From IMG/VR virus record IMGVR_UViG_3300017727_000002: a stretch of DNA of 64,000 bases; one strand, 5' to 3'. Source of the DNA: a virus. The position numbers and the translations under genes were made by a program. Below are positions 34,037 through 64,000 of this stretch, in pieces (the stretch's first letter is position 1; every line of letters starts with the position of its first letter). The notes below the pieces were generated by a model. That model had not been told where the DNA came from, made no database searches, and saw nothing but the letters and a program-made list of their open reading frames with translations.

Positions 34037-34588
34037 ATGGCAGTCTCAAAAAAGAAGCCCCAACATTATGTTGATAATAAACAGTTTCTACAAGCACTAA
34101 AAGATTATAAAGATGCTTGTGCTAAGGCGAGCAAAAAGAAACAAGATAAACCTAGAATCCCAGAGTATATTGGTGAATGCTTATTGAAGATTGGTACACA
34201 CCTTTCTTACAAACCTAACTTCATCAACTATACCTATCGGGATGATATGATACTGGATGGTGTTGAAAACTGTATTCAATACATACATAACTTCGACCCT
34301 GATAAATCTGGTAATCCATTTTCATACTTTACGCAAATTATTTTCTATGCTTTTTTACGAAGAATTAAAAAAGAAAAGAAACAAACTTATGTGAAGCAGA
34401 AACTAATTGCTGAGATGGATGTTGATGCGTTCATGGAAGCAGGTGAAGATAGCGAAGGTACTAACCAATATATTGAGTATATGAAAAAGAACCAAGTTCT
34501 TGACCCTTACTTTGAAGCCAAAGAGAAAAAGAAGAAAGAAAAAAAGTCCACACCCATCTCTGATGCGTTGGACGATGTAAATGAGTAA
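34037..34588 (+). CDS. 55: Late transcription sigma factor gp55
   Basis: HYVDNKQFL, LSYKPNFINYTYRDDMILDGVENC, NPFSYFTQIIFYAFLRRIKKEKKQ. Confidence 0.97.
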   Translation: MAVSKKKPQHYVDNKQFLQALKDYKDACAKASKKKQDKPRIPEYIGECLLKIGTHLSYKPNFINYTYRDDMILDGVENCIQYIHNFDPDKSGNPFSYFTQIIFYAFLRRIKKEKKQTYVKQKLIAEMDVDAFMEAGEDSEGTNQYIEYMKKNQVLDPYFEAKEKKKKEKKSTPISDALDDVNE

Positions 34589-35648
34589 AGTTGCTATTAT
34601 AACCGATCTACATTTCGGTGCTAGAGGAGATGCTATCACTTTTGTAGATTATATGGATAAATTCTATACAAATACTTTTTTCCCTGCTTTGAAGGAAAGA
34701 GGTATCAAAACTATATTAAATCTTGGTGATACATTCGATCGCCGAAAATACATCAATTACCATTCATTAAAAAGATCTAGGCAGTTCTTCTTTGACCCTA
34801 TTAAAGATGCTGGTATGCACATGTGGATGTTGGCTGGTAATCACGATACTTATTATAAGAACACCAACGATACTAATTCTATCGACTTACTATTAAATGA
34901 TTATAAAAATATTACTACTATACCTGAAGCGATGGATATAACAGTTGATGGTCGTGATATTTTTATGCTACCATGGATCTGTACTGACAATTATCAATCA
35001 AGTATGGAAGCATTAGAGGATAGTAAAGCAGAAATATGTATGGGTCATTTAGAGATAGCTGGTTTTGTAATGCATCGTGGGGTTAAATCTCATGGTGGTT
35101 TAAACGCAGAAAGGTTTAGAAAATTTGGTTTGGTTTATTCGGGTCATTACCATCATAGGAACAACGATGGGCATATATATTATCTTGGGAATCCTTATGA
35201 ATTAACTTGGTCTGATTATAAAGACCCAAGAGGATTTCATATCTGGGATACTGAAACTATGGAACTTGAGTTTATTGAGAATCCATATACTATGTTTGAA
35301 AGAGTAGAGTACGATGATGTGACCAATAATTATGATGACTTTGATGCTAGTATTATGGCTGATAAGTATGTCAAAGTGATTGTAGCTAACAAGTCAGACT
35401 TTAATAAGTTTGATACATTTATGAAAGGGATTTATAAAGCTGGTCCACACGATGTTAAAATTATCGAGGACTTCGCTGAGTTTAAAGATGGCGAGATTGA
35501 TGAAGAGATAAACTTAGAAGATACCATGAATATATTGAATAGTTATGTTGATAGTGTAGAAACAAATTTAGATAAGGAAAAAGTAAAAGGATTCCTTAAA
35601 GGATTATATGCTGAAGCACAACAAACTGAAAGTGAAACTGCTGAATGA
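34581..35648 (+). CDS. 47: Recombination nuclease subunit gp47 (Mre11/SbcD-like)
   Basis: ITDLHFG, LGDTFD, GNHD, SGHYH metallophosphoesterase motifs. Confidence 0.96.
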   Translation: MSKVAIITDLHFGARGDAITFVDYMDKFYTNTFFPALKERGIKTILNLGDTFDRRKYINYHSLKRSRQFFFDPIKDAGMHMWMLAGNHDTYYKNTNDTNSIDLLLNDYKNITTIPEAMDITVDGRDIFMLPWICTDNYQSSMEALEDSKAEICMGHLEIAGFVMHRGVKSHGGLNAERFRKFGLVYSGHYHHRNNDGHIYYLGNPYELTWSDYKDPRGFHIWDTETMELEFIENPYTMFERVEYDDVTNNYDDFDASIMADKYVKVIVANKSDFNKFDTFMKGIYKAGPHDVKIIEDFAEFKDGEIDEEINLEDTMNILNSYVDSVETNLDKEKVKGFLKGLYAEAQQTESETAE

Positions 35649-40906: not shown

Positions 40907-41142
40907 GAAAAGAGAAAACACCCCCACCCAATTCAAAACTAAGATATCATGTAAAGCGAAAAGGTAAATCTTTTCATGTGATAGAAAATGGTGGCGATTA
41001 TCAAAACAAAGTTATCCATGAAACTTCTGATAAAAAAGAAGCATATCGGATATCTAAAATACAAAGTAAAACTCAACAGTGGGCACCGAATGCTGGTGTA
41101 CCTTTATATCTATGTCCTACTCAGGTTATACAGCAGTCATAG
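40903..41142 (+). CDS. Small basic hypothetical protein
   Basis: ATGA-coupled ORF. Confidence 0.5.
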   Translation: MRKEKTPPPNSKLRYHVKRKGKSFHVIENGGDYQNKVIHETSDKKEAYRISKIQSKTQQWAPNAGVPLYLCPTQVIQQS

Positions 41143-41963
41143 GAATTTTAATCAGTGACAACCACAGTAAAGAAGATATTCTTAACTGTATGAAAAGTTG
41201 TCAAGGATATCCTATATGGGTACACGCGAACACCAATGATACTAATTGGGCAGATAGGATGAAGATTGCTTGTGAAGAAACAGGTTGTCATTATTTTTCT
41301 AGCACTAGAAGTAATGGTAATCCAGGATTTGGTAAAAACTTGATGATGAGAAACTTTGGTATGGATACTAATTTAAGATTCTTTAGTTATTGCTTTCTAA
41401 TAGATGGCGATGACGCATGGGGATCTACACTGCCTGAGTTATTCAAAAGGAAGTACGATGGCGACTTCTTATTCTCATCAGGTGGCAAGTATAAGTGGAA
41501 AGATGAGATATATGAAAAGGTTGAACTGGCTCAGCTGAGCGAACAAATAAGAAAGGATATGGGGGATAAGTACGATAAGCCAACATCCTATATATCTGAG
41601 TGGTTGGATTTAAGAGAGTTATTACAGAAATTTTATCAGCATCCTAATAATGAGCATGGCACATTAAATAGATTGATAGGATTTCATAAGGGTTCAATCT
41701 ATAAATTACAGTTTAAAGAAGATATTAAAATAGCTGAAGACCTAATTTTTCATATTGAAGCATTGATGGCTGACAAAAGAAAAGAGTTTAAGATACAATA
41801 TTTACATGATGATGACTTATACTTATATCAACCAAATGAAAGAGGAATACATTATTACTCTTTTTCTAGACCAAAAGAAAACTGGTTAGCGAGAGTAAGA
41901 GCATATCTACCAAAGGCATATCCTAAAAGTTTGAAAAAATATAAAGTGGACTGGATAAAATGA
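41112..41963 (+). CDS. Putative GT-A fold glycosyltransferase
   Basis: SNGNPGFGKN and FLIDGDD (DxD) motifs, and a later EDL; start moved to ATG 41112. Confidence 0.5.
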   Translation: MSYSGYTAVIGILISDNHSKEDILNCMKSCQGYPIWVHANTNDTNWADRMKIACEETGCHYFSSTRSNGNPGFGKNLMMRNFGMDTNLRFFSYCFLIDGDDAWGSTLPELFKRKYDGDFLFSSGGKYKWKDEIYEKVELAQLSEQIRKDMGDKYDKPTSYISEWLDLRELLQKFYQHPNNEHGTLNRLIGFHKGSIYKLQFKEDIKIAEDLIFHIEALMADKRKEFKIQYLHDDDLYLYQPNERGIHYYSFSRPKENWLARVRAYLPKAYPKSLKKYKVDWIK

Positions 41964-42613
41964 CATATATCGTTCCTAAAAAAGTTTATTACATACATAT
42001 CCCCAAAGCTGGTGGTACGACTGAGAAGTACAAACTGAAGGAACTATATGGTAATGATATGAAAGAAGTGACCACAGGAAAGCATAGTCCTTATGATAAA
42101 CAGTATGCTGATTATGATTGTATATATACACATGTAAGGAATCCGCATGATAGATTATTGTCAATTTATTTGTTTTGGTTTGAACTTAAATTTATGCCAC
42201 AAAAACATATTACTGATAAAAGAATAGACTTTATGCAATATGAACACAAACAAAGAATATCGCAAAATTTTGGACATTATATGGGTGGGATGTCAAAGTT
42301 TGATACTATGCTTTACAATAAGATAACTCCACTTATTCAAGATAATAATCCTGAAAATTATTACAAGTGGTTAGATACTGTAGGAAAAGCAAATGATGAA
42401 ATGGATTGTTTCTTTGAATATCGACCATGGCTTCAACAACATTTATGGTTGGCTGATAATGTATTCGTAAAGAAGATTGAAGATGAAGGTGGCGAAAAAT
42501 TAAATATTACCAGCAGAATGCCAGAACATGATGATAATGATTACTTACAAATAGGCAAACCACTAATAGAAAAATATTACAAAGAAGACTTAGAAAGGTT
42601 CGGATATGAATAG
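41960..42613 (+). CDS. Sulfotransferase family 2-like protein
   Basis: YIHIPKAGGTT (5'-PSB loop) and VRNPHDRLLSIY (3'-PB motif). Confidence 0.75.
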   Translation: MTYIVPKKVYYIHIPKAGGTTEKYKLKELYGNDMKEVTTGKHSPYDKQYADYDCIYTHVRNPHDRLLSIYLFWFELKFMPQKHITDKRIDFMQYEHKQRISQNFGHYMGGMSKFDTMLYNKITPLIQDNNPENYYKWLDTVGKANDEMDCFFEYRPWLQQHLWLADNVFVKKIEDEGGEKLNITSRMPEHDDNDYLQIGKPLIEKYYKEDLERFGYE

Positions 42614-49842: not shown

Positions 49843-52326
49843 ATGAAGTTTTATACAAATGTTCATCCCCATGGTAATCAGCTTCTAGTCAGATATATTT
49901 CTGGCACGAAGCGAAAAGCCGAGAAGATACCTTTCAAACCCAGTGTATGGGTCACAAAAGGTAAAGGCGAAACACCATACAAAACTCTTAAAGGGCATCC
50001 TGCTTATAAAATCCAACAAGGATCTATAAAGGATGCTAAAGACTTTGTACACCGATACAATGATGTTATGGAAGTACATGGTCAAACTCAGTGGCATTAC
50101 CAATATATGCATGATGAGTTTAAGGATGATATTGAATGGGATAAAGAACTTATTAAGATTTGGTCAATAGATATTGAGACTGAAACTGAAGAAGGATTCC
50201 CTAATATTGAACGAGCCAACGAGAAACTTCTACTAATTACTTTACAAGATAATCATTCAAAAGAGATTATTACTTTCGGCACTAAAGAATATACAGGTGA
50301 CGAAAAGCAACATAATAACTGGCGATATGTATATTGTCGTGATGAAAAGATTTTATTTCACAAGTTCCTAGATTACTGGATTGAAAATTATCCTGATGTA
50401 ATTACAGGTTGGAACTCTCAGTTTTTTGACCTCGCATATTTATGGCGAAGAATGTGTCATGTAATTGGCGAAGACCATGCTCGTAGATTGTCTCCTTGGA
50501 AAATTGTACATGAACGAGAGATATTCGTAAAAGGTAATAAAGAGTTCGCCATAGCAATCGCAGGTATTGCTCAACTTGATTATCTTGACCTCTATAAAAA
50601 ATATACTTACACAGCACAAGAATCTTATCGTCTAGATAATATTGCCTTCGTTGAACTTGGTCAAAAGAAACTTGACCATAGTGAGTACGCAACATTCTCA
50701 GAGTTCTATAGAAATGATTGGAATAAATTTGTTGATTATAATGTTATTGATACAGTATTAGTTGACAGGCTAGAAGATAAAATGAAGCTGATTGAACTTC
50801 AGCTTACTATGGCATATAATGCTAAGATTAATTATGATGATGTATTTTCTCAGGTTCGTATGTGGGATATGATTGTTCACAATTATCTGATGAAAGTAAA
50901 TGTGGTAATACCACCGAAATCTAATGAAGATAAAAAGACTAAGTTTGAAGGAGCATTCGTAAAAGAGCCATTGATTGGTTTACATAAATGGGTTGCTTCA
51001 TTTGACTTGAACTCGCTGTATCCCCATTTAATTATGCAATATAATATATCTCCCGAAACTCTACAACCTGAGTCTGTAGAAAAAGGAGTTGAGCATTATC
51101 TTAAAAACCCTGCCATAGATTCGGAGTTTGCTGTTGCTGCCAATGGCTCTCAATATAGAAAAGATTTCAGAGGTGTATTCCCTAGTATTATGGAAGACTT
51201 CTATAATCAAAGGAAGATCGCTAAGAAAGAGATGCTTCAAGCACAGCAATTATATGAGGATGAGAAAGATACTCGTCAGCTAAAAGTTATATCAAGTAAG
51301 AATAATTATCAGATGGGTTTGAAGATTGCTCTTAACTCAGCTTATGGTGCACTTGGTAATCAATACTTCAGATACTTTAATTTAAAAATGGCTGAAGCTA
51401 TTACTACTTCTGGTCAATTATCTATTCGTTGGATACACGATAGAATGAATGAATATCTCAACAAGATAATCGGTACAGAAAACGAAGATTATATTATCGC
51501 TGTTGATACAGATTCTATATATGTGACATTCGAAAAACTTGTAGATAAAGTTATGGGAGATAAACAATCTGACATAAATAAAACCATCAAGTTCCTAGAC
51601 ACTATATGTAATGATAAATTTATGCCATATATAAATGAACAATATTCTGAACTGGCTAATAGGCAAAATGCCTTTGCTAACAAGATGGTTATGGAAAGAG
51701 AAGTTCTAGCTGATAAAGGTTTATGGACTGCGAAAAAAAGGTATGTTCTTTCAGTGTATAATTCTGAAGGTGTGTCCTATAAAAAACCTAAGATGAAAAT
51801 TATGGGACTAGAGATGATTAAATCTTCTACTCCCTATGCTGTTCGTGAACTTCTAAAGGGTGTGATACCAGTTATCCTACATGGCGATAATAATGAACTC
51901 TTCAAATATATTGAAGAGACTAGAAACTATTTCAACTCTTTACCTATTGAAGAGATTTCCTTCCCTAGATCTGTAAATGGTCTCAGCAACTATAAAGATT
52001 CTATGAGCATATATAGGAAAGCAACTCCTATTCATGTCAGAGGTGCTTTACTTTATAATCATTATTTGAAAGAAAAGAACATAGACCTAAGATACAATGA
52101 TATTAAAGAGGGTGAGAAAATTAAATTCGTTTACTTGAAAAAACCTAATGTCATCAGGGAGAATGTTATATCCTTCCTAGATGTTGTTCCTAAAGAGTTC
52201 GGCATACATGATTATGCTGATTATGACTTGATGTTTGAAAAGGTATTCTTAGATCCAGTCGATATCATGATACAATCACTTGGATGGAAAGTAAAGCAAA
52301 CAGCCAGTCTTGAGGATTTCTTTTAA
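49843..52326 (+). CDS. 43: Family B DNA polymerase gp43
   Basis: DIETE exo I, SFDLNSLYPHLI, KIALNSAYG, VDTDS, KKRY; C-terminal SLEDFF clamp-binding peptide. Confidence 0.99.
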   Translation: MKFYTNVHPHGNQLLVRYISGTKRKAEKIPFKPSVWVTKGKGETPYKTLKGHPAYKIQQGSIKDAKDFVHRYNDVMEVHGQTQWHYQYMHDEFKDDIEWDKELIKIWSIDIETETEEGFPNIERANEKLLLITLQDNHSKEIITFGTKEYTGDEKQHNNWRYVYCRDEKILFHKFLDYWIENYPDVITGWNSQFFDLAYLWRRMCHVIGEDHARRLSPWKIVHEREIFVKGNKEFAIAIAGIAQLDYLDLYKKYTYTAQESYRLDNIAFVELGQKKLDHSEYATFSEFYRNDWNKFVDYNVIDTVLVDRLEDKMKLIELQLTMAYNAKINYDDVFSQVRMWDMIVHNYLMKVNVVIPPKSNEDKKTKFEGAFVKEPLIGLHKWVASFDLNSLYPHLIMQYNISPETLQPESVEKGVEHYLKNPAIDSEFAVAANGSQYRKDFRGVFPSIMEDFYNQRKIAKKEMLQAQQLYEDEKDTRQLKVISSKNNYQMGLKIALNSAYGALGNQYFRYFNLKMAEAITTSGQLSIRWIHDRMNEYLNKIIGTENEDYIIAVDTDSIYVTFEKLVDKVMGDKQSDINKTIKFLDTICNDKFMPYINEQYSELANRQNAFANKMVMEREVLADKGLWTAKKRYVLSVYNSEGVSYKKPKMKIMGLEMIKSSTPYAVRELLKGVIPVILHGDNNELFKYIEETRNYFNSLPIEEISFPRSVNGLSNYKDSMSIYRKATPIHVRGALLYNHYLKEKNIDLRYNDIKEGEKIKFVYLKKPNVIRENVISFLDVVPKEFGIHDYADYDLMFEKVFLDPVDIMIQSLGWKVKQTASLEDFF

Positions 52327-54418: not shown

Positions 54419-54863
54419 TCCTAAAGAGTACCAACCAATCCACTCTGCTAATGATTATGTATCTGAAGAAGATTACTTAAAAGCAAAAGAGGAATGGGAA
54501 AAGGAAAACTATCATACTGACAAGTTGAGAGATACAGGTCAGCAACAACTTCCACATACAGTATTAGAAGAAACCAACGAACAAGGTTTCATGAAACTTA
54601 AAGTCAATCAAGGCATCCTAGAAGATAAAATAGTTTCCTTTGGTAAAGTTTCTTTTCAACCCACTGAAGATGGTACTATTAAACTTGACTATAATTATGA
54701 GATAGATGGTCCAGATAAATATAGACCAGTACCAAAGGTTGAAGTTGAGAAAATACTTGGCGACTTCCTAATGGCTATGATAAAAGAACAAATGGCTGAA
54801 AAAGCAGTTCTTTTTAGAGGTGGCGAGGATGAAATGAAGGAAGCATTAGGAGAAGATGCCTAG
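54384..54863 (+). CDS. Hypothetical protein at the gp40 position (head vertex assembly chaperone-like)
   Basis: Between uvsX and gp41 as in T4; SFGKVSF...IKLDYNYEI; GTG start at 54384 is tentative. Confidence 0.45.
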   Translation: MSKKPKIIQGNNPKEYQPIHSANDYVSEEDYLKAKEEWEKENYHTDKLRDTGQQQLPHTVLEETNEQGFMKLKVNQGILEDKIVSFGKVSFQPTEDGTIKLDYNYEIDGPDKYRPVPKVEVEKILGDFLMAMIKEQMAEKAVLFRGGEDEMKEALGEDA

Positions 54864-54864
54864 T

Positions 54865-54893
54865 TTGACATTTAACTTTTTTACAGGTAGAAT
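54865..54893 (+). promoter_or_regulatory. sigma70-type promoter for gp41 (TTGACA-N17-TAGAAT)
   Basis: Perfect -35; -10 ends 6 nt before the ATG. Confidence 0.75.
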
Positions 54894-54899
54894 CTAACT

Positions 54900-56291
54900 A
54901 TGCGTATTGAAGACACTATATTAAATAATCTTATTCATAATGATGAGTACTGCCGAAAAGTAGTACCATTTATTAAAGCTGAATATTTCCAAGATAGAAC
55001 TGAAAAGATAATATTTGAAGAGTTTGATAAACTGTTCTTACAGTACAACAACATTCCTAATCCTGATATGATTGCTTCTGAAGTTTTTGAACGAAAAGAT
55101 TTATTTGAAAACGAGCATGCTCTTATTCAGGAAAAAATACAGCAGATGTCTGAGCCAAAATCTATTAATGATAATTGGCTATATGATAAAACTGAGGAAT
55201 GGTGTAAAGAACGAGCAGTACATAATACTATTATGGACTCTATCAAAATTATCGATGGTCGTGATAAAGTACATACCAAAGATGCGATTCCTAAAATGAT
55301 GCAGGATGCTTTGGGTGTTTGCTTTGATGACTCTGTCGGTCATGATTATCTTGAAGATGCTGATGATAGATTTCAATTTTATCATAAGATTGAAGAAAAA
55401 ATTAAATTTGATATTGATTTATTGAATACTATTACTCGTGGTGGTTTGAGTAAAAAAACTCTTAACATCGCCATGGCTGGTACTGGTGTTGGTAAATCTT
55501 TGTTTATGTGTCATCATGCATCTAGTGTATTGAACGAGGGTATGAATGTTCTTTATGTCACTATGGAGATGGCTGAAGAAAAGATATCTGAAAGGATTGA
55601 CGCAAACTTATTGAACTTGGGTATGGATGAAATTAAAGTTGTTGACCATGATATATTCAGTAAGAGAATTAATAAAGTAAAAGAAAACAGTAAAGGTAAA
55701 CTGATTGTAAAAGAATATCCTACAGGTGCTGCTCATGCAGGTCACTTCAGAGCATTACTTGAAGAACTTAAAATGAAAAAAGGTTTCAAAGCAGATATTA
55801 TATTTATCGATTATCTAAATATCTGTGCTTCGCAAAGACTAAGGATGGGTGCCAATGTAAATACTTATTCTTATATCAAATCTATTGCTGAAGAACTAAG
55901 AGGTCTGGCAGTTGAATATAACTGTCCTATCGTATCAGCTACTCAAACTACAAGAGGTGGATATAATAATACTGATGTTGGTCTTGAAGATACTTCGGAG
56001 TCTTTCGGTTTACCAGCTACTGCCGATCTAATGTTTGCGATTATTGCTAGTGAAGAACTGGATAATATGGGACAATGGATGATTAAACAACTTAAAAACA
56101 GATATTCAGATCCTAACTATTATAAGAGATTTGTAGTTGGGGTTGATAAAAACAAGATGAGATTGTACAATGTTGAAGAATCTGCCCAAAGTAATATAAT
56201 GGATAGTGGGCAGGAAGAAAAAGATATCGGAGCAGTATTTGATAAAACCGATGCAGGTGAACGATTAAGTATGGAAGGATTTAAGGTATGA
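54900..56291 (+). CDS. 41: Replicative helicase gp41
   Basis: AGTGVGKS, TMEMAEEKI, IDYLNI, SATQTTR, QLKNRY. Confidence 0.97.
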   Translation: MRIEDTILNNLIHNDEYCRKVVPFIKAEYFQDRTEKIIFEEFDKLFLQYNNIPNPDMIASEVFERKDLFENEHALIQEKIQQMSEPKSINDNWLYDKTEEWCKERAVHNTIMDSIKIIDGRDKVHTKDAIPKMMQDALGVCFDDSVGHDYLEDADDRFQFYHKIEEKIKFDIDLLNTITRGGLSKKTLNIAMAGTGVGKSLFMCHHASSVLNEGMNVLYVTMEMAEEKISERIDANLLNLGMDEIKVVDHDIFSKRINKVKENSKGKLIVKEYPTGAAHAGHFRALLEELKMKKGFKADIIFIDYLNICASQRLRMGANVNTYSYIKSIAEELRGLAVEYNCPIVSATQTTRGGYNNTDVGLEDTSESFGLPATADLMFAIIASEELDNMGQWMIKQLKNRYSDPNYYKRFVVGVDKNKMRLYNVEESAQSNIMDSGQEEKDIGAVFDKTDAGERLSMEGFKV

Positions 56292-57589
56292 CAAAAACAA
56301 TAACAGCACCTAAGAAATTTGACTGTGAAAATATATTGGGTAGATTTGGTGACGAAAGTCATTATGAGTTGTTAGTTGATTATGATTGTGATTTTTATGC
56401 TCCTACACCTATGGGTGAGGAAAACTCTGAAGAAAATATTATATTCAAGTTTAGAAAGAACTTCTTTTCTCAAGAACAACAAGACGAAGCATATAAAGGA
56501 CTTCGTGAAGCAGCAGGTGCCACTGAAAATCGTGGACTCGCAGCAGGTATAGAAAAAACCAAATCGCTTGGCTCTAGAGATTGGGTCACTAATTACCATG
56601 AAGAATTATTGGCATATTTTCAAAACCCATCTACAACACTAGATGGTTCTGACCCAGTAGAAAATATTAAAGCTAAGTGGAAAGGTAGAGAGAATATTGC
56701 TGATGACAGTAGAGGTAATGTATGGTTGGCTCTTAAAGTTGCTGAGGAAGCATTTGAGTTTGAAGCATGGGTTGAAGAGATAAGGTTATTACCCAAAGAT
56801 GAAATGGTAGCTGAAGCGAATAGAGTTAGAGATAAACTTACATCTACAACTTCTTATGCTAATCAGGTTTTCTCAGGTATCGCAGGTTATTTTGACAGAT
56901 ATCCTCGTATTCCTTTTGGTCGTCCTACAACTTACACTCGTGATAATTATGATAAGTTTGAGATGGCACTTCCTTTCTTACAACAACTTAGTAAAGGATT
57001 TGAAGATCTATTACCTGTCAGATATGGTAAGCAGAATGAAGCATGTGGTAAATTAGATTCTAAGTTTATTATTCCAGGAACTGTATTTACTACTGCTACT
57101 GTAAACAAAACTTTTAGAACAGCTTACCATAGAGATGCTGGTGATTTGAATGAAGGTTTTTCTAATCTTACTGTTGTATCTAATAATGGTAAATACTCAG
57201 GTGGTCATTTAATACTTCCTGAATATAAGGTTGCTGTAAACATTCGTCCTGGAGATTTATTACTAATTAATAATCATGACGGAATACATGGTAATACACC
57301 TATGGTTATGGAATCTGATGATGCTGAAAGAATATCATTCGTGTGTTATTTTAGGGAAAAAATGTTAGAACTTGGATCTTGGGATTATGAAAGGGCAAGG
57401 GAAGATTATGTCACTGCTCGTAGAACTAATAAAGAACACCCTTTACAAAGAAAATTATGGAATGGTATCAGTCCTGGAATGTGGGATGAAAGTGAGTGGT
57501 ACGATTTCTTAGAAAATAAATTAGGTATAGATGTATTGACTAAGTATCATCCCGACAGTCAGTCATCAAGTTTGGAGGAATTTTTCTAA
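56288..57589 (+). CDS. TET/JBP-family 2OG-Fe(II) dioxygenase (DNA base hydroxylase)
   Basis: FTTATVNKTFRTAYHRDAGD (HxD), HGNT (distal His), ERISFVCYFRE (2OG-binding Arg); ends SSLEEFF. Confidence 0.8.
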   Translation: MTKTITAPKKFDCENILGRFGDESHYELLVDYDCDFYAPTPMGEENSEENIIFKFRKNFFSQEQQDEAYKGLREAAGATENRGLAAGIEKTKSLGSRDWVTNYHEELLAYFQNPSTTLDGSDPVENIKAKWKGRENIADDSRGNVWLALKVAEEAFEFEAWVEEIRLLPKDEMVAEANRVRDKLTSTTSYANQVFSGIAGYFDRYPRIPFGRPTTYTRDNYDKFEMALPFLQQLSKGFEDLLPVRYGKQNEACGKLDSKFIIPGTVFTTATVNKTFRTAYHRDAGDLNEGFSNLTVVSNNGKYSGGHLILPEYKVAVNIRPGDLLLINNHDGIHGNTPMVMESDDAERISFVCYFREKMLELGSWDYERAREDYVTARRTNKEHPLQRKLWNGISPGMWDESEWYDFLENKLGIDVLTKYHPDSQSSSLEEFF

Positions 57590-58413
57590 TGGACATTTTA
57601 AAAGATTATCAAATCTGTATCCCATCATATAAGCGACACGAAACTGTGATGAATAAAACCATCGAGGTATTAAAGTCATATAATATTGACCCAGCTAGGA
57701 TTAAAGTATTCGTGAATGATGAGGAGCCAGGAGAGTATGACAATTATGTAGATACTTTATCTAAAACTGAATACACAAAAAATATTGAAGTCGTAAAAGG
57801 TGTACCAACTATTGGTAAGCAAAGAAACTTCATAGAGAAGTATTATCCTGAAGGAACTTATGTCATGTCTTTTGATGATGATATTGAAGAAGTACAAGTT
57901 AAGGATGGCGAGCAAAACTTACTGCGTGTTGAAGACTTTGAAAAAGAAGTTATACTTAGAGGTTTCCAAGCATGTGAAGATAACGATGCTAAGACTTTCG
58001 GTATATATGCAGCATCAAATGCGTACTTTATGAAGCATCGTACATATACGAAACTTTGTTATATTATCGCTAGTATGTATGGATTTATAGCTGACCACGA
58101 TCCTGAATTAGATCGTCATACTAATCATGGTGAAGATTATGAGTATAGTATGCGTCAATATAGAAAACATGGTGTTGTCGTAAGACTTGATGATATTACT
58201 GTAAAATCTAATTACTATAAAGAGGTTGGTGGCTTACAAACATTTAGAACTGCTGAAAATATTAAGTCAAGTATTGAGTGGATTGCTGAGAACTTTGACG
58301 ATTTATGTACGATGTATATTCGTAAGACTACTGGGCATGCTGAATTAAAATTGCGTGATACATCTGGTGGTAAATATGATAAAAATTTAAGCACATTAGA
58401 AGGTTTCTTTTGA
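57589..58413 (+). CDS. TET-associated glycosyltransferase (TAGT, GT-A fold)
   Basis: ICIPSYKR, QRNFI, FDDDI (DxD), GEDYEYS, YYKEVGGLQ; coupled to the TET gene; ends STLEGFF. Confidence 0.78.
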   Translation: MDILKDYQICIPSYKRHETVMNKTIEVLKSYNIDPARIKVFVNDEEPGEYDNYVDTLSKTEYTKNIEVVKGVPTIGKQRNFIEKYYPEGTYVMSFDDDIEEVQVKDGEQNLLRVEDFEKEVILRGFQACEDNDAKTFGIYAASNAYFMKHRTYTKLCYIIASMYGFIADHDPELDRHTNHGEDYEYSMRQYRKHGVVVRLDDITVKSNYYKEVGGLQTFRTAENIKSSIEWIAENFDDLCTMYIRKTTGHAELKLRDTSGGKYDKNLSTLEGFF

Positions 58414-58541
58414 ACGAATTAAAACCATTTATCTTAGGTATAGCAATAGCAATGTTATTTGTTGGTCTTATAATATGGATAAGTCCATATGGTGGTCAGC
58501 ATGAGCCATTAGATATATTAATTAGAATCTATCAACAATGA
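58410..58541 (+). CDS. Small membrane peptide (43 aa, TTG start)
   Basis: Fills the gap with 4-nt overlaps at both ends; one hydrophobic helix. Confidence 0.45.
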   Translation: MNELKPFILGIAIAMLFVGLIIWISPYGGQHEPLDILIRIYQQ

Positions 58542-58957
58542 GAACTGGTATAACTGCTTCAACTTTCGACCTGCTTCATGCTGGTCATGTACAAATGTTA
58601 AGGGATGCCAAATCTCAATGCGATTATTTAATAGCATGTTTACAGATAGATCCTAGTATAGATAGAAAAGATAAAAATGCTCCAATACAAACTGTCGTTG
58701 AAAGATACACACAATTAAAAGCAGTAAAATATGTTGATGAGATTATACCATATTCAAGCGAAAAAGATTTAGAAGATATCTTAGAATTATATGAGATTGA
58801 TGTTAGAATACTAGGCGAGGAATATAGAGAAAAAGATTTTACTGGTAAGGATATATGTAAGAGAAGAGATATAGAATTATATTTTAATAAGAGGGAACAT
58901 AGGTTTTCCTCCACAGATTTGAGAGAAAGGGTGAGTGAGCAATGGTCTGGAAAGTAG
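58538..58957 (+). CDS. Cytidylyltransferase (TagD / glycerol-3-phosphate cytidylyltransferase-like)
   Basis: STFDLLHAGH (HxGH), KYVDEIIPY, RFSSTDLRERV. Confidence 0.88.
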   Translation: MRTGITASTFDLLHAGHVQMLRDAKSQCDYLIACLQIDPSIDRKDKNAPIQTVVERYTQLKAVKYVDEIIPYSSEKDLEDILELYEIDVRILGEEYREKDFTGKDICKRRDIELYFNKREHRFSSTDLRERVSEQWSGK

Positions 58958-59256
58958 CAAAGAAAGACGAAAGATATACTGTATTAGATTATGAAGGATT
59001 GAATGTTCTCGTACCTTCTCTCACAATTTTACAACCTGGATGTGAAACTAATGGTCATGTACACAGTGACCCACAACAGGAAGAAGTTTATGTATTTACA
59101 ACTGGCACTGGACTCATGGAAGTTGAAGATGAAACGATCTCTGTAAAAGCTGGAGACATCATCCCAGTGCCAGCCAATAAATTTCATAAAGTCTATAATA
59201 ATGATGTAGTGCCATTACACTTTGCTGCTGTATTCAATGGTGCTAGATATGAGTAA
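58942..59256 (+). CDS. Cupin domain protein
   Basis: GHVH...EEVYVF..G.G...GDII.VP....HKVYN cupin metal motif. Confidence 0.8.
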   Translation: MVWKVAKKDERYTVLDYEGLNVLVPSLTILQPGCETNGHVHSDPQQEEVYVFTTGTGLMEVEDETISVKAGDIIPVPANKFHKVYNNDVVPLHFAAVFNGARYE

Positions 59257-59278
59257 ACCCAACCTTTTCCCAATATCA

Positions 59279-59285
59279 CTAAATA
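59279..59285 (+). promoter_or_regulatory. Late promoter (CTAAATA)
   Basis: 6 nt before the ATG at 59292. Confidence 0.55.
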
Positions 59286-59291
59286 GTTGAT

Positions 59292-59840
59292 ATGGCAAAG
59301 TGGTATAGAGATAAAGCAATAATCAATGTCAGAGGTGGAGATGCCGAGACTAGAAAACTTGTTCGCTCTATCGCCCACTGGGTTTCTCGAAAAACTATGG
59401 ATGTTCGACTCCGAACATCTGTCACTGTAAATATCGTAATACAAAAAAACTTATATCTTAAGGAAAAAGTCCAAGGATTATCTTGGATTGACGATGAAGC
59501 ATATCGTCCTAAGAAATTTAAGATACAGGTTGAAAAGGAATCTAGACTAAGACCTTTGCTAGAAACTATTGCCCATGAAATGATACATGTTAAGCAATGG
59601 GCATCTGGTGAAATGTATGAATATTCTGATGGCTTTAGGACTCGTTATAGAAAGCAAGGGTTTAACACTAAAAAGTTAGATTATTGGGATGCTCCTTGGG
59701 AAGTAGAAGCACATGGTAAAGAGGTTGGTCTATTCGTAAGATGGGCAGAAGAAGAAGGATATAACAAACTTCCTTGGGCACAAATTGACTTCCTAAAACC
59801 TGAGTATGCCAAGAAAATTAAAAATCAAATAAAATCGTAA
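59292..59840 (+). CDS. HExxH zinc metallopeptidase-like protein
   Basis: ETIAHEMIHVKQW and YWDAPWEVEAHG. Confidence 0.8.
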   Translation: MAKWYRDKAIINVRGGDAETRKLVRSIAHWVSRKTMDVRLRTSVTVNIVIQKNLYLKEKVQGLSWIDDEAYRPKKFKIQVEKESRLRPLLETIAHEMIHVKQWASGEMYEYSDGFRTRYRKQGFNTKKLDYWDAPWEVEAHGKEVGLFVRWAEEEGYNKLPWAQIDFLKPEYAKKIKNQIKS

Positions 59841-59847
59841 AAAGTCC

Positions 59848-59875
59848 TTTACTTTTGTTCAAATTTAAGTAGAAT
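59848..59875 (+). promoter_or_regulatory. sigma70-type promoter (TTTACT-N16-TAGAAT) overlapping ATAAATA
   Basis: Consensus with a 16-nt spacer; the late-type ATAAATA at 59874-59880 suggests dual timing. Confidence 0.5.
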
Positions 59876-59885
59876 AAATAGTGTT

Positions 59886-61091
59886 ATGTCTAAATTTGAA
59901 AACGACCTAGATCTTGTAAAAGCCAAACAGAATGCAGTGAGAGCAAAAGCTACACTGGAAAAACGATTTGCTTCAGATCCTAAAATACAACAAATACTTG
60001 ATAAAATAACACCCAATAAACAAGTTATGTGTTATATCTTTTCTAAGAGTATAGCATTTCGTGTGGGTCGTGGTAGTATAAAATCTATCGCAGGATTTCC
60101 TGCTGGACTTAAAAATAGTTTTACAGGTATTAATACTGCCAAATCAACTTTCAATCCTTTAAAGATACCAGCAGAAACTAAAAGCTATTCTAAATCAGAT
60201 ACTGTTTTATTACTTGCTTTACATTATTTAATTAATTTTTCTGATAGAGTAAAAAGCGAAACTGATAAAACCGAAGCAGTTGAAAGTGAGCAAGTTATGA
60301 CAGTACAAGCTGACTTAAAAAAATTAATTAGAGAATATGGTATAGTGAGATTACAAGTAGGAAAAGAAACTTTTGATGTAGATAATTTTAAACAAGTTCC
60401 TGGAAGACCGAAAGCAGATATGGTGTTCGAATATAAAGGCAGACCAAATATTTTTGTATCACATAAAAAAGGAACTAAACCTGCTGCCTTCCAACAGTAT
60501 GGTGGTTTTGCTGTTGACCTCCAAGTGAAAGATTTACAATCAGCTAGAGCATATCCAGAAATAGAACAGTTTTTAAAAGATATAAACGAAACTATGAAAG
60601 CTATGGGTGTGAAAAAAGATTCGGCTGGTCGTTATGATTTAAATGATTTACAAAGAGGAAGTAATATGGCTCGTCTTATTCATGATGAAGATGTTGCTAA
60701 TACTGTTAAGTTTGGTAAAGATTTTAAAACTAAAAAAATGGGTCTAGACAATTGTTCTATACTTATAGATGGTGACATCGTATTTAAACCAATGACTGGA
60801 AATATATTTGAATTATGTGGAAGTTTTCATACAGATATAAATCCTGAATTACAAAAAAAGAAAAAAAGATTTATATCAGATAAAAATGATGTGTACTCTC
60901 CTGCTATGTTTATTTTAAAGTCAGAACAGCAAGGTCTAAATCAAGCAGGGTTGGCTAATGCTAGAGCAGTTATTTGGCCAAATAACCAGATTATTCAAGG
61001 ATATACAGCACAGTTTGAAAGGATGTTTAGAGGAGTAAAAACTAAGAACAGCAATACCATAGAAGGATTGAAGAAAGAATTTAAAAAATAG
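59886..61091 (+). CDS. Putative PD-(D/E)xK restriction-endonuclease-like protein
   Basis: PGRPKADMVF...IFVSHKKG...FQQYGG matches the (P)D...(S)xK variant of the fold; weak. Confidence 0.45.
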   Translation: MSKFENDLDLVKAKQNAVRAKATLEKRFASDPKIQQILDKITPNKQVMCYIFSKSIAFRVGRGSIKSIAGFPAGLKNSFTGINTAKSTFNPLKIPAETKSYSKSDTVLLLALHYLINFSDRVKSETDKTEAVESEQVMTVQADLKKLIREYGIVRLQVGKETFDVDNFKQVPGRPKADMVFEYKGRPNIFVSHKKGTKPAAFQQYGGFAVDLQVKDLQSARAYPEIEQFLKDINETMKAMGVKKDSAGRYDLNDLQRGSNMARLIHDEDVANTVKFGKDFKTKKMGLDNCSILIDGDIVFKPMTGNIFELCGSFHTDINPELQKKKKRFISDKNDVYSPAMFILKSEQQGLNQAGLANARAVIWPNNQIIQGYTAQFERMFRGVKTKNSNTIEGLKKEFKK

Positions 61092-61790: not shown

Positions 61791-62131
61791 TGGCACAAGT
61801 ACACGAAATGTTATACATGAAAATGGATAATGGTGATTATATCTATGGTACTAATTTAGATATTGGTAAATACTCAGTAAAGTTTGACCCACCACTTGAA
61901 TGTAAATATGAGTTTGACCATGTACCACCTATGAAACTAGAAGGACAAGGTGGCTACTCGGAAGGATCTAAAGCATTCAAGTATGTTGGTACTGACCACG
62001 ATCCTATGACAGTTTCTCATCCACCTAGCCAAGAGATGATGAGAGTGACTGCTCGAGGTGATAAAGAATTCTATAAAACTAATGGCTGGGATTATGAAAC
62101 AGGGGAGTTAATATACAACGAAAAATGGTAA
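61790..62131 (+). CDS. Hypothetical protein
   Basis: TAATG-coupled. Confidence 0.55.
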   Translation: MAQVHEMLYMKMDNGDYIYGTNLDIGKYSVKFDPPLECKYEFDHVPPMKLEGQGGYSEGSKAFKYVGTDHDPMTVSHPPSQEMMRVTARGDKEFYKTNGWDYETGELIYNEKW

Positions 62132-63372
62132 AATCATTTAAGACATTAATTACTGAGCAAAAAAATGTTCATATGGAACATATTGAAGACATCCTCTTTG
62201 ACGAGGGTGTCGCTGGTGCTAGACGAGCAATTAATTTCATGCAAGGTATGCGTGATATGTTGGCTGGTAAATCATCAAACAAAGTAAATGCTACAGTAAA
62301 ATGGGATGGTGCACCAGCAATCTTTGCTGGTACAGATCCTAGAAATGGAAAAAAGTTTGTTGCTAAAAAAGGTATCTTCAATAAAGATCCTAAAGTTTAT
62401 TATACACCTGCCGATGTTAAGAAAGATACATCTGGGGACTTACAAGCAAAGCTATTAATTTGCTTGAAATATTTACCCAAGATTCTACCAGATCGTGGTA
62501 TCTTTCAAGGAGACTTAATGTGGGCAGGTCGTAATGACTTAAAATTAAAAGATATAGATGGTCAGTCTATGGTGACTTTTCAACCTAATACTATCGTCTA
62601 TGCTGTTCCTGCTATATCAGGATTATCAAATGTTATTCGTCGTGCTCATATGGGTATCGTCTGGCATACTGAATATACTGGAAATACATTCGATACTCTT
62701 AGAGCATCGTTTGGTAAAAACATTGCTAAGAAAATGAAACAACCTGGAATACTAGGTGGCGATGTTTGGTTTGATGATGCTACTTATAAAGATGTATCAG
62801 GTCAAGCATCTATGACTGCTAAAGAAACAGCTGAGTTTACTAAGCAACTATCTGCTATCGGTACTCAGTTTAGAAAAGTAAATGCTAATATATTGAACAG
62901 TATTAATGCTAATAAAGATTTGCTTATCAATATCAAGGCATTTAACAATACTAAGATAAAAGCAGGGAAAAGGATTACCAACCCAAGCCAGCATGTGACG
63001 CAAATGTTTCATTATATTGCTAACAAGTATAAGAAAGAAATAGATAGCAAGAAAACTGAAGCTGGTAAGAATACTTGGAAAGCTAAAAAGAATGATGTAC
63101 TGTCATTTTTTATAAATGACAAACAAAAAATCGTTGAGATATTTAAGCTGATGAATATGATGGTGGATGCAAAGCAAACACTAATCAATAAAATGAACCA
63201 AATTGGATCTATGAAAACTTTTGTAAGGACTCGCAATGGGTTTAAAGTGACAGGAGTTGAGGGTTATGTGGCTATTGACAAGATGTCAGGGAAAGCTGTA
63301 AAACTGGTAGATAGACTTGAGTTCTCTCGCCTGAATTTTTCTCCTGAAATATTGAAAGGTTGGAATAAATAA
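62125..63372 (+). CDS. DUF6267-like protein with a ligase-type KxDG motif
   Basis: KNVHMEHIED, TVKWDGAPAIFAG, FQGDLMW, FQPNTIVY, EGYVAID...AVKLVDRLEFSRLNF. Confidence 0.75.
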   Translation: MVKSFKTLITEQKNVHMEHIEDILFDEGVAGARRAINFMQGMRDMLAGKSSNKVNATVKWDGAPAIFAGTDPRNGKKFVAKKGIFNKDPKVYYTPADVKKDTSGDLQAKLLICLKYLPKILPDRGIFQGDLMWAGRNDLKLKDIDGQSMVTFQPNTIVYAVPAISGLSNVIRRAHMGIVWHTEYTGNTFDTLRASFGKNIAKKMKQPGILGGDVWFDDATYKDVSGQASMTAKETAEFTKQLSAIGTQFRKVNANILNSINANKDLLINIKAFNNTKIKAGKRITNPSQHVTQMFHYIANKYKKEIDSKKTEAGKNTWKAKKNDVLSFFINDKQKIVEIFKLMNMMVDAKQTLINKMNQIGSMKTFVRTRNGFKVTGVEGYVAIDKMSGKAVKLVDRLEFSRLNFSPEILKGWNK

Positions 63373-63376
63373 ATAC

Positions 63377-63383
63377 CTAAATA
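63377..63383 (+). promoter_or_regulatory. Late promoter (CTAAATA) inside the palindrome ATACCTA-AATA-TAGGTAT
   Basis: Intergenic; palindrome spans 63373-63390. Confidence 0.55.
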
Positions 63384-63412
63384 TAGGTATATTTAATCGA
63401 TGGGACAAATAA

Positions 63413-64000
63413 ATGAAAGACTTTAAAACACTTCTTAATGAAGTGCCTGCTAAAAAAATGGTCATAGGGTTTGGAAGATTTAATCCTCCAACCACTGGTC
63501 ACGAATTACTTATCAATAAGGTGACCCAGTATGCTCGTTCAAAAGGCAGTCCCTCCAAAATATATGTCACAGCTACTGAAGACAAAAAGAAAAACCCACT
63601 AAAACAAGAACGCAAAATCTATTACATGAAAAGGATGTTCGGTGTGAACGCTCCTTTCGTGCCAACGAAGTCGCCTAATCAAAGAACAATTATAGAAGTA
63701 GCAAAGTATCTCAATACAAAAGAAAAGATTACTGAACTAACACTTATTGCTGGTAGTGATAGGATTGCTGAATACAAGAGATTACTCAACCAATATAATG
63801 GTAAAGATTACAACTTTGATAAGATAACTGTATTATCTTCTGGTCGTAGAGACCCTGACTCAGATATGGCTGAGGGAATGTCAGCTACTAAAATGAGAAC
63901 TGCTGCCAGTTCTGGTAAATTTACTGACTTCAAACGAGGTATCCCTCGTAGAATGACTATGGCTGATAGTAAAAGATTATTTAACGAAGTACGCAAAGGC
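63413..64000 (+). CDS. Cytidylyltransferase / NMNAT-fold protein, 3'-partial (absent from the ORF track)
   Basis: Read by hand: MKDFKTLLNEVPAKKMVIGFGRFNPPTTGHELLI...AGSDRIAEY...GRRDPDSDMAEGMSATKMR; open to the window end. Confidence 0.85.
   Translation, partial: MKDFKTLLNEVPAKKMVIGFGRFNPPTTGHELLINKVTQYARSKGSPSKIYVTATEDKKKNPLKQERKIYYMKRMFGVNAPFVPTKSPNQRTIIEVAKYLNTKEKITELTLIAGSDRIAEYKRLLNQYNGKDYNFDKITVLSSGRRDPDSDMAEGMSATKMRTAASSGKFTDFKRGIPRRMTMADSKRLFNEVRKG

Follow-up and report, generated by a model that had tools for sequence, protein, structure and literature searches.

The arabinosyl DNA pathways of phages RB69 and DLP3 use phage-made UDP-arabinose (PMC6024577, PMC13326640). Heptosyl-5-hydroxymethylcytosine (heptosyl-5hmC) has been reconstituted from a phage HAD/APH enzyme, a CTP-transferase and a GT-B glycosyltransferase, all three of which were required (contig 53, 'subclass III'; bioRxiv 10.1101/2023.12.21.572611), and other phage DNA glycosyltransferases depend on a partner epimerase (bioRxiv 10.1101/2023.12.21.572611). 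The locus described here lies in a 64-kb stretch of DNA (64,000 nucleotides, hereafter the window) from IMG/VR record IMGVR_UViG_3300017727_000002; the window is part of a T4-like marine phage and encodes a gp43 polymerase, UvsX and gp41. In it, genes for an HxGH nucleotidyltransferase (NTase) and a small cupin are chained to a TET/JBP dioxygenase and a DNA glycosyltransferase of the TAGT family. The best reading of this arrangement, held at about even probability, is that the NTase and cupin supply a dedicated donor for DNA glycosylation, because the NTase also abuts two other DNA-base-modifying systems, one of dCMP hydroxymethylase and alpha-glucosyltransferase and one with a DpdA/TGT-like protein. 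An initial annotation of the window had already proposed a phage-made donor, with an adduct that may be other than glucose. A phage-made and probably non-glucose donor is still the best reading, and other phages likewise have the same NTase chained to enzymes that glycosylate DNA or modify its bases.

Six open reading frames (ORFs) on the plus strand overlap end to end between 54900 and 59256. The first encodes the gp41-type replicative helicase (54900..56291), which shares 49-54% identity with its counterparts on related T4-like contigs and whose stop codon lies within the start of the next gene, that of a 433-aa 2OG-Fe(II) dioxygenase of the TET/JBP (5mYOX) family (56288..57589; HxD...H motifs; PF12851 2e-20, 73.1 bits; phrog_24024 1.7e-161). 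The end of the TET gene in turn overlaps the gene for TAGT, a JGT-like GT-A DNA glycosyltransferase of 274 aa (57589..58413; phrog_25200 and phrog_842). Read from the sequence, the TAGT stop shares TTGA with the TTG start of a 43-aa ORF (58410..58541), the stop of that ORF shares ATGA with the ATG of the 139-aa NTase (58538..58957), and the ATG of the 104-aa cupin (58942..59256) lies 16 nt inside the NTase gene. Pfam gathering scores are passed by Tet_JBP, TAGT, CTP_transf_like and Cupin_2 in this chain, and the overlapping series of TAGT, small peptide, HxGH transferase and cupin that the initial annotation had described is as stated in both coordinates and junctions. The best site in 54500-60000 for a sigma70-like promoter, TTGACA-17-TAGAAT, lies directly in front of gp41 (54865..54893, plus strand; 11/12 matches, a consensus match only), and no terminator-like site was found on the plus strand between it and the end of the cupin gene. 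Because the six ORFs overlap, with one promoter-like site in front and no internal terminator, they appear to be coupled, and a single early or middle transcription unit running from gp41 through TET, TAGT, the 43-aa ORF and the NTase to the cupin is the best explanation. The cupin stop is followed by a 35-nt spacer (59257-59291) containing CTAAATA, which resembles a late-type promoter for the 182-aa gene that starts at an ATG at 59292; this protein has no Pfam match and belongs to phrog_10499.

The least certain member of the chain is the 43-aa ORF, recognised from the ORF call and the reading of its junctions. It contains one hydrophobic stretch of 19 residues (the initial annotation had named it a membrane peptide), and gene calls with the identical sequence exist on 40 contigs. 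Only identical copies were found, no diverged homologue, and the ORF is missing from the TAGT-NTase junction of the related locus L115/L116, so that its coding status is doubtful.

The NTase recurs beside DNA-modifying enzymes in other phages. In a second T4-like TET lineage (G007, L115/L116), TET, TAGT and NTase genes abut directly. In two distantly related T4-like contigs (G002 and G003), the NTase gene overlaps a GalE-like gene that itself overlaps a full-length homologue of the T4 alpha-glucosyltransferase (PF11440 1e-29; PDB 1y8z 9e-34), and approximately 7 kb from the NTase there is a chain of DUF3310, cupin, MazG-like and dCMP hydroxymethylase genes, followed by a sugar dehydrogenase. 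This hydroxymethylase is of the T4 gp42 type (1b49, 1.7e-61) and the cupin is 73-77% identical to that of the window. The third setting is a lineage with polB, in which a cassette of NTase, PMM-type mutase and epimerase or dehydrogenase, in some cases preceded by the cupin, is followed one gene later by a TGT/DpdA-like protein of ~500 aa; of the 20 loci that carry PMM and extend at least 4.8 kb beyond the NTase, 18 show this arrangement. The ~500-aa protein (L010:9151-10605 and 28 other loci) carries an LGDSGGFQ motif and gave no Pfam, PHROG or PDB sequence match; its structural model (pLDDT 71) matches tRNA-guanine transglycosylases only. It is accordingly named here as a putative, model-based DpdA-like DNA transglycosylase, and in the polB lineage there may be deazaguanine DNA that carries sugars.

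Comparison of the window with G002 found the NTase (83% identity), DUF3310 (75%) and the cupin (73%) to be the three most similar proteins, with core proteins at 30-50%, which suggests that these three have been exchanged horizontally, or have been under strong constraint, apart from the core genes. DUF3310 comes after TAGT or the NTase in most TET loci. A KdsA-like (DAHP_synth_1) gene was also seen immediately in front of TET in L118, two genes behind TAGT in L089-L092 (L089:8088-8876) and in the hydroxymethylcytosine/sugar island of G002 (L139:9213-9989, L139 being G002), and is possibly another donor-supply gene, for a Kdo-type sugar. Neighbouring proteins of no assigned family gave little: pairwise BLAST of two of them (287 aa in Acinetobacter phage Ab1-TPeters; c5, 242 aa) against TAGT detected no similarity, and PDB sequence searches with c5 and c11 returned no matches.

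Relatives of the NTase were found in more than 590 viral stretches, and the neighbourhood counts that follow are for the best 80 of these matches (75-85% identity); the viral searches are pattern-limited and reach fairly close relatives, hence numbers for co-occurrence should not be taken as an unbiased census. In 48 of these 80 loci a PMM-family mutase (PF03332, 100 bits) lies just downstream of the NTase, a GalE-like epimerase is present in 30, a sugar dehydrogenase in 13 and a cupin homologue in 23, adjoining the NTase start in 14 of the 23. At least one of the four is present in 60 loci. The NTase clade is both abundant and very highly conserved. There are 106 records of cultured phages with a homologue, among them the Vibrio phage Va1/phiKT1024 group (78% identity), and Acinetobacter phage Ab1-TPeters has the gene order cupin-NTase-PMM. 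Hundreds of bacterial genomes also carry a homologue, at 60-67% identity in many Flavobacteriia, Sphingobacteriia and Microbacterium; in 80 bacterial loci at that level of identity the next gene was GalE in 52 and UDP-glucose dehydrogenase in 35. From these gene contexts it is concluded that the NTase is predicted to activate a sugar phosphate. The earlier proposal that transferase and cupin are sugar-precursor enzymes chained to TET/TAGT is upheld by the overlapping ORFs, the family matches and these conserved sugar-gene neighbours.

A T4-like phage with both TET and TAGT (G008) additionally carries a 49%-identical NTase paralogue inside a complete classical heptose cluster. The cluster (L137:5373-10457) comprises a methyltransferase-like gene, the NTase, a SIS isomerase, a HAD phosphatase, a transaldolase, a GT1 glycosyltransferase and a GHMP kinase. 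Its transaldolase, of a kind usually read as a pentose-phosphate auxiliary metabolic gene (AMG), may feed sedoheptulose-7-phosphate into heptose synthesis.

At the level of family, the NTase is well above the PF01467 cut-off (56.8 vs 21 bits, 3.5e-15), with residues 7-131 aligned to profile positions 3-133 of 133, and its motifs FDLLHAGH (HxGH) and RFSSTDLR (RxxxSST) show little or no variation among 18 family members. The name 'TagD-like' given to it initially holds for this superfamily and goes no further, as the protein falls far below both the TagD equivalog TIGR01518 (69.7 vs 165.4 bits) and its best NCBIfam match, the HldE-II family rfaE_dom_II (TIGR02199; 71.5 vs 181.5 bits). Public records name proteins of this clade variously TagD or HldE, and the ESM Atlas cluster names are generic ('cytidyltransferase/TagD'). 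Among solved structures its best relatives are the ethanolamine-phosphate and glycerol-3-phosphate cytidylyltransferases (ECT 1e-25, TagD 5e-16), ahead of HldC (5x9q, 9e-11). This ranking, and the near-level TagD and HldE-II scores, would suit a true TagD/ECT-type enzyme, whose CDP-polyol or CDP-aminoalcohol group would be joined by a further transferase to a DNA sugar or base as a teichoic-acid-like phosphodiester, the cupin having a separate role. Such an enzyme is nevertheless improbable: both equivalog cut-offs are missed widely, the conserved neighbours are PMM-type mutases, GalE-like epimerases and sugar dehydrogenases and not polyol-phosphate dehydrogenases or TagF-type transferases, and TAGT belongs to the DxD GT-A glycosyltransferases and is no phosphotransferase. 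A function as NMNAT or in NAD salvage was rejected, as the NCBIfam matches were at E 1e-3 or worse and every conserved neighbour is a sugar enzyme. A second HIGH-type nucleotidyltransferase of the window (phrog_3041/395; NMNAT-like matches weak) follows a DUF6267 gene (415 aa, 1.5e-106) at 62125-64000, and the two are fused in phrog_455 (764 positions).

The cupin passes PF07883 Cupin_2 (41.9 vs 27.2 bits, 8e-11), and its AlphaFold model, built from 17 homologues, is all-beta with a pLDDT of 93.7. A word-indexed homologue search returned three near-identical proteins only. Across the 17 sequences the GHxH...E and H residues are invariant, and the window's own protein reads GHxH...EEVY...FHKV. 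The family motifs GHxH, EEVY and FHR align on GHFH, EVY and HR of the archaeal cupin-type phosphoglucose isomerase (PGI), that is, on its His-x-His, Glu, His set of metal ligands. When Foldseek was run with the model, the highest-ranked structures were archaeal cupin PGIs (29-30% identity, E 1e-8), and a Thermococcus phosphomannose isomerase (PMI) of minimal type was matched at a TM of 0.8; the top PDB match of the family profile is likewise Pyrococcus furiosus PGI (6.6e-9). The Pfam scores of the window's protein are below threshold for GPI (PF06560; 17.5 vs a cut-off of 20.7) and MannoseP_isomer (PF01050; 22.7 vs 23.6), and the Ab1-TPeters homologue passes GPI at 25.4. The best reading is of a putative metal-dependent aldose-ketose isomerase of sugar phosphates, and an isomerase of this kind would act before nucleotide activation. 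This departs from the initial annotation, which had placed the cupin after activation as an NDP-sugar isomerase or epimerase. An RmlC-like NDP-sugar epimerase role was set aside on the same grounds: the His/His/Glu/His metal site is intact and the top matches are to PGI and PMI, which points to a phosphosugar isomerase that depends on metal.

A cupin with no part in sugar metabolism has to be weighed here, since single-sequence PDB searches placed the DddK of Pelagibacter among the best matches (5tfz 2.8e-6; 6a53 2.2e-6) and the phage is marine: the protein would then be a DddK-like dimethylsulfoniopropionate (DMSP) lyase or another small-molecule metalloenzyme, a marine auxiliary gene unrelated to the NTase. 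With the family profile, cupin PGI ranks above DddK, though DddK follows closely by sequence (6.6e-9 vs 1.3e-7); the cupin adjoins the NTase in 14 loci and in Ab1-TPeters, and in G002 it is chained to the hydroxymethylcytosine genes, so that a non-sugar enzyme is given very little credence.

The two DNA-directed enzymes of the chain allow the acceptor base to be predicted. TAGT passes the PF20691 cut-off (45.6 vs 27.5 bits), and its active-site motifs FDDDIEE and GEDYEY supply the DDD and EDY of the published R...DDD...EDY/F signature. No ORF of the window combines the PCQ, ENV and FxGxGG motifs of a DNA C5-methyltransferase (C5-MT), a weak, motif-only test, and by the same test the neighbouring C5-MT of the phage 5-methylcytosine-dioxygenase pathway (clades A/B) was not seen. 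C5-MT genes are present in just 6% of phage 5mYOX pathways, and the pathways without one cluster with proven thymine dioxygenases (PMC13229309). TET is therefore probably, by analogy, a thymine dioxygenase, its most likely product being 5-hydroxymethyluracil (5hmU) because no C5-MT is visible in the window, and the adduct would most likely be a glycosyl-5hmU, an analogue of base J. Similar acidic-aromatic tails end gp43 (SLEDFF, 52303-52326), TET (SLEEFF, 57566-57589) and TAGT (STLEGFF, 58390-58413) and may tether TET and TAGT to the sliding clamp. The NTase and cupin have no SLExFF-type tail, a distribution that fits DNA-bound roles for the former pair and small-molecule roles for the latter.

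A scan of viral contigs with the TET protein, limited by its pattern-based search, gave no matches; TET homologues in other phages were collected through TAGT loci, and these included a different order in L120-L122 and L126, where a ParB_N protein is followed by TAGT and then a short TET (~296 aa), which fits the published ParB-dependent subclass of thymine dioxygenases. In Caulobacter phage Cr30 (KF301602.1; 59624-59902 and 153246-153632), part of a DNA repair gene annotated as SNF2 has 67.5% DNA identity to the TET gene and may, judged on that match, be a JBP2-like fusion; Cr30 also has a 46%-identical NTase ('TagD') ~94 kb from the TET-matching gene.

Several results weigh against a donor made for DNA, including the ranking of the NTase nearest to phospho-alcohol cytidylyltransferases given above. 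A VIA-align structure comparison leaves all cupins tied (Z 14-16), and the window contains no mutase, kinase, phosphatase, epimerase or dehydrogenase, so the C1 phosphate-transfer step is missing there. Most directly, neither TET nor TAGT lies within 6 kb of the NTase in any of the 80 closest NTase loci, and five long NTase contigs (94-200 kb) lack both, with a positive control detected in 5/5. From the other side, 37 of 39 TAGT loci have TET with neither NTase nor cupin within 8 kb, the closest TAGTs (84-86% identity) being among them, which implies that the donor of TAGT is not obviously dependent on the two genes. Taken literally, the co-occurrence check proposed with the initial annotation went against it, as the NTase and cupin do occur apart from TET/TAGT. 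Independent occurrence is too narrow a criterion, however, because independent NTase loci often adjoin other DNA-modifying enzymes.

Some of these results also support a different account, in which the NTase and cupin form a mobile sugar-nucleotide module for a non-DNA acceptor (host envelope polysaccharide, lipopolysaccharide or a virion protein), their position after TAGT reflects a chance insertion where the genome is plastic, and the sugar that TAGT transfers comes from a host donor, for instance UDP-glucose. No TET, TAGT, AGT or thymidylate-synthase-like/hydroxymethylase genes were detectable in four carriers of the NTase (G004, G005, G006 and G012; contigs 18-64% complete). The sites at which the NTase is found are also unrelated to one another: in G004, for example, it lies between gp15 and the terminase gene, and in L032 between genes whose homologues in the window are at 34037-34588 and 34581-35648, the latter encoding an SbcD-like nuclease. 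The bacterial homologues lie within polysaccharide loci beside GalE, UGDH, ManC and RmlA, from which it follows that the native acceptor of the family is not DNA, and the cyanophage genomes in which homologues adjoin nucleotide-sugar epimerases are not known to be glycosylated. The G002 island, moreover, contains unrelated AMG-like, peroxiredoxin and MaoC-like genes. Against this account, three phage lineages have the NTase chained directly to DNA-base-modifying enzymes of three different kinds, two unrelated lineages have it within the replication module, and the window shows no flippase-type or membrane glycosyltransferase gene alongside it. A non-DNA acceptor is the main rival, though rated less likely, and a dedicated donor for DNA remains the preferred reading.

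If the NTase and cupin do supply DNA glycosylation, the gene chain, family memberships and conserved neighbourhoods allow a mechanism to be proposed, whose predicted elements are the enzymes' substrates, the base that accepts the sugar and the use of this donor by TAGT. Acting on DNA after its replication, TET would oxidise a 5-methylpyrimidine, most probably converting thymine to 5hmU, and the resulting hydroxymethyl group would be glycosylated by TAGT as a JGT-like GT-A enzyme. Meanwhile, the cupin would convert a ketose phosphate (fructose-6-phosphate or sedoheptulose-7-phosphate) to an aldose phosphate of manno configuration. The phosphate would then be moved to C1 by a host enzyme or an unseen phage enzyme, the PMM-type mutase being the candidate for this step in related phages. 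From the sugar-1-phosphate and an NTP, the HxGH NTase would make a mannose- or heptose-type NDP-sugar, and the sugar would finally be put on DNA by TAGT or by a second transferase. More tentatively, the NTase, the PGI-like cupin and the PMM-type mutase of relatives might together constitute an undescribed three-enzyme route to NDP-manno-sugars (heptose or mannose), with the cupin taking the place of GmhA or PMI and the mutase that of kinase plus phosphatase. Such a route could be plugged into TET/TAGT chemistry on 5hmU, gp42/alpha-glucosyltransferase chemistry on 5hmC and DpdA-like chemistry on 7-deazaguanine, giving several new bases that bear sugars, one of them, in this phage, an analogue of base J with a sugar other than glucose; this wider proposal is speculative and, on present evidence, rather doubtful.

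Which restriction, CRISPR and glycosylase defences a phage can evade is decided by its glycosylated bases, and any new DNA sugar is potentially useful for enzymatic DNA labelling. If the NTase feeds DNA glycosyltransferases, a function is gained for a common marine-phage gene, an alternative route to activated sugars is defined, and unknown DNA adducts are predicted in abundant T4-like phages of the ocean. If it feeds a non-DNA glycan instead, many calls of 'DNA hypermodification' based on this gene have been over-interpreted. Elsewhere in the window (41079-42613), a 294-aa ORF with no Pfam match overlaps a weak Sulfotransfer_2-like ORF (E 4.6e-4).

Set beside described systems, the locus is close to the 5mYOX-GT 'subclass III' cluster, which also brings together a TET-family dioxygenase, a DNA glycosyltransferase and a CTP_transf-type enzyme; as in other 5mYOX-GT donor-supply clusters, the 5mYOX and glycosyltransferase genes of the window are adjacent and at least one further sugar-pathway enzyme is in the cluster. 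It differs from the contig 53 system in having a GT-A (TAGT/JGT-like) in place of a GT-B glycosyltransferase, a putative cupin isomerase in place of the HAD/APH kinase-phosphatase, and an acceptor that is probably 5hmU, given that no C5-MT was seen, rather than 5hmC. With the phage thymine dioxygenases that accompany glycosyltransferases (clade C2, ParB-independent; PMC13229309) and with trypanosome base J (JBP and JGT), it shares a TET/JBP protein beside a JGT-like GT-A enzyme with no adjacent C5-MT, from which 5hmU and then glycosyl-5hmU are predicted. Base J formation takes cellular UDP-glucose, whereas in the window two extra donor-pathway genes are chained to the glycosyltransferase.

The ADP-/GDP-heptose pathway (GmhA, HldE or HddA, GmhB, HldE-II/HldC or HddC) offers a further comparison, since the NTase is in the HIGH superfamily of HldE-II, the G008 paralogue lies in a full GmhA/kinase/phosphatase cluster, and the cupin would replace the isomerase. 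Here the putative isomerase of the window is a cupin and not a SIS domain, the NTase is under the HldE-II cut-off, and a PMM-type mutase replaces kinase and phosphatase in relatives, all of these being absent from the window. The cupin itself has the fold of the archaeal cupin PGIs (P. furiosus, T. litoralis) and the minimal Thermococcus PMI (7zvy, 7zvm), with the aligned GHxH/E/H metal motif at the 29-30% identity already given, although at 104 aa it lacks the N- and C-terminal extensions of the 189-aa archaeal PGI. In the glucosylation of hydroxymethylcytosine by T-even phages (gp42, gp56, alpha-glucosyltransferase), as in RB69 and DLP3, the phage likewise makes or selects the donor for its DNA glycosyltransferase, and G002 and G003 combine genes of the gp42 and alpha-glucosyltransferase types with this NTase and cupin. 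The window differs from the T-even, RB69 and DLP3 pathways in its post-replicative TET route and in an NTase of HIGH fold, not the GT-A-like fold of sugar-1-phosphate nucleotidyltransferases. Phage-made donors for DNA glycosylation are already established and the idea is not new in kind; what is new here is that a TAGT of GT-A type is combined with a putative isomerase of the cupin fold and an NTase of this clade, probably acting on 5hmU.

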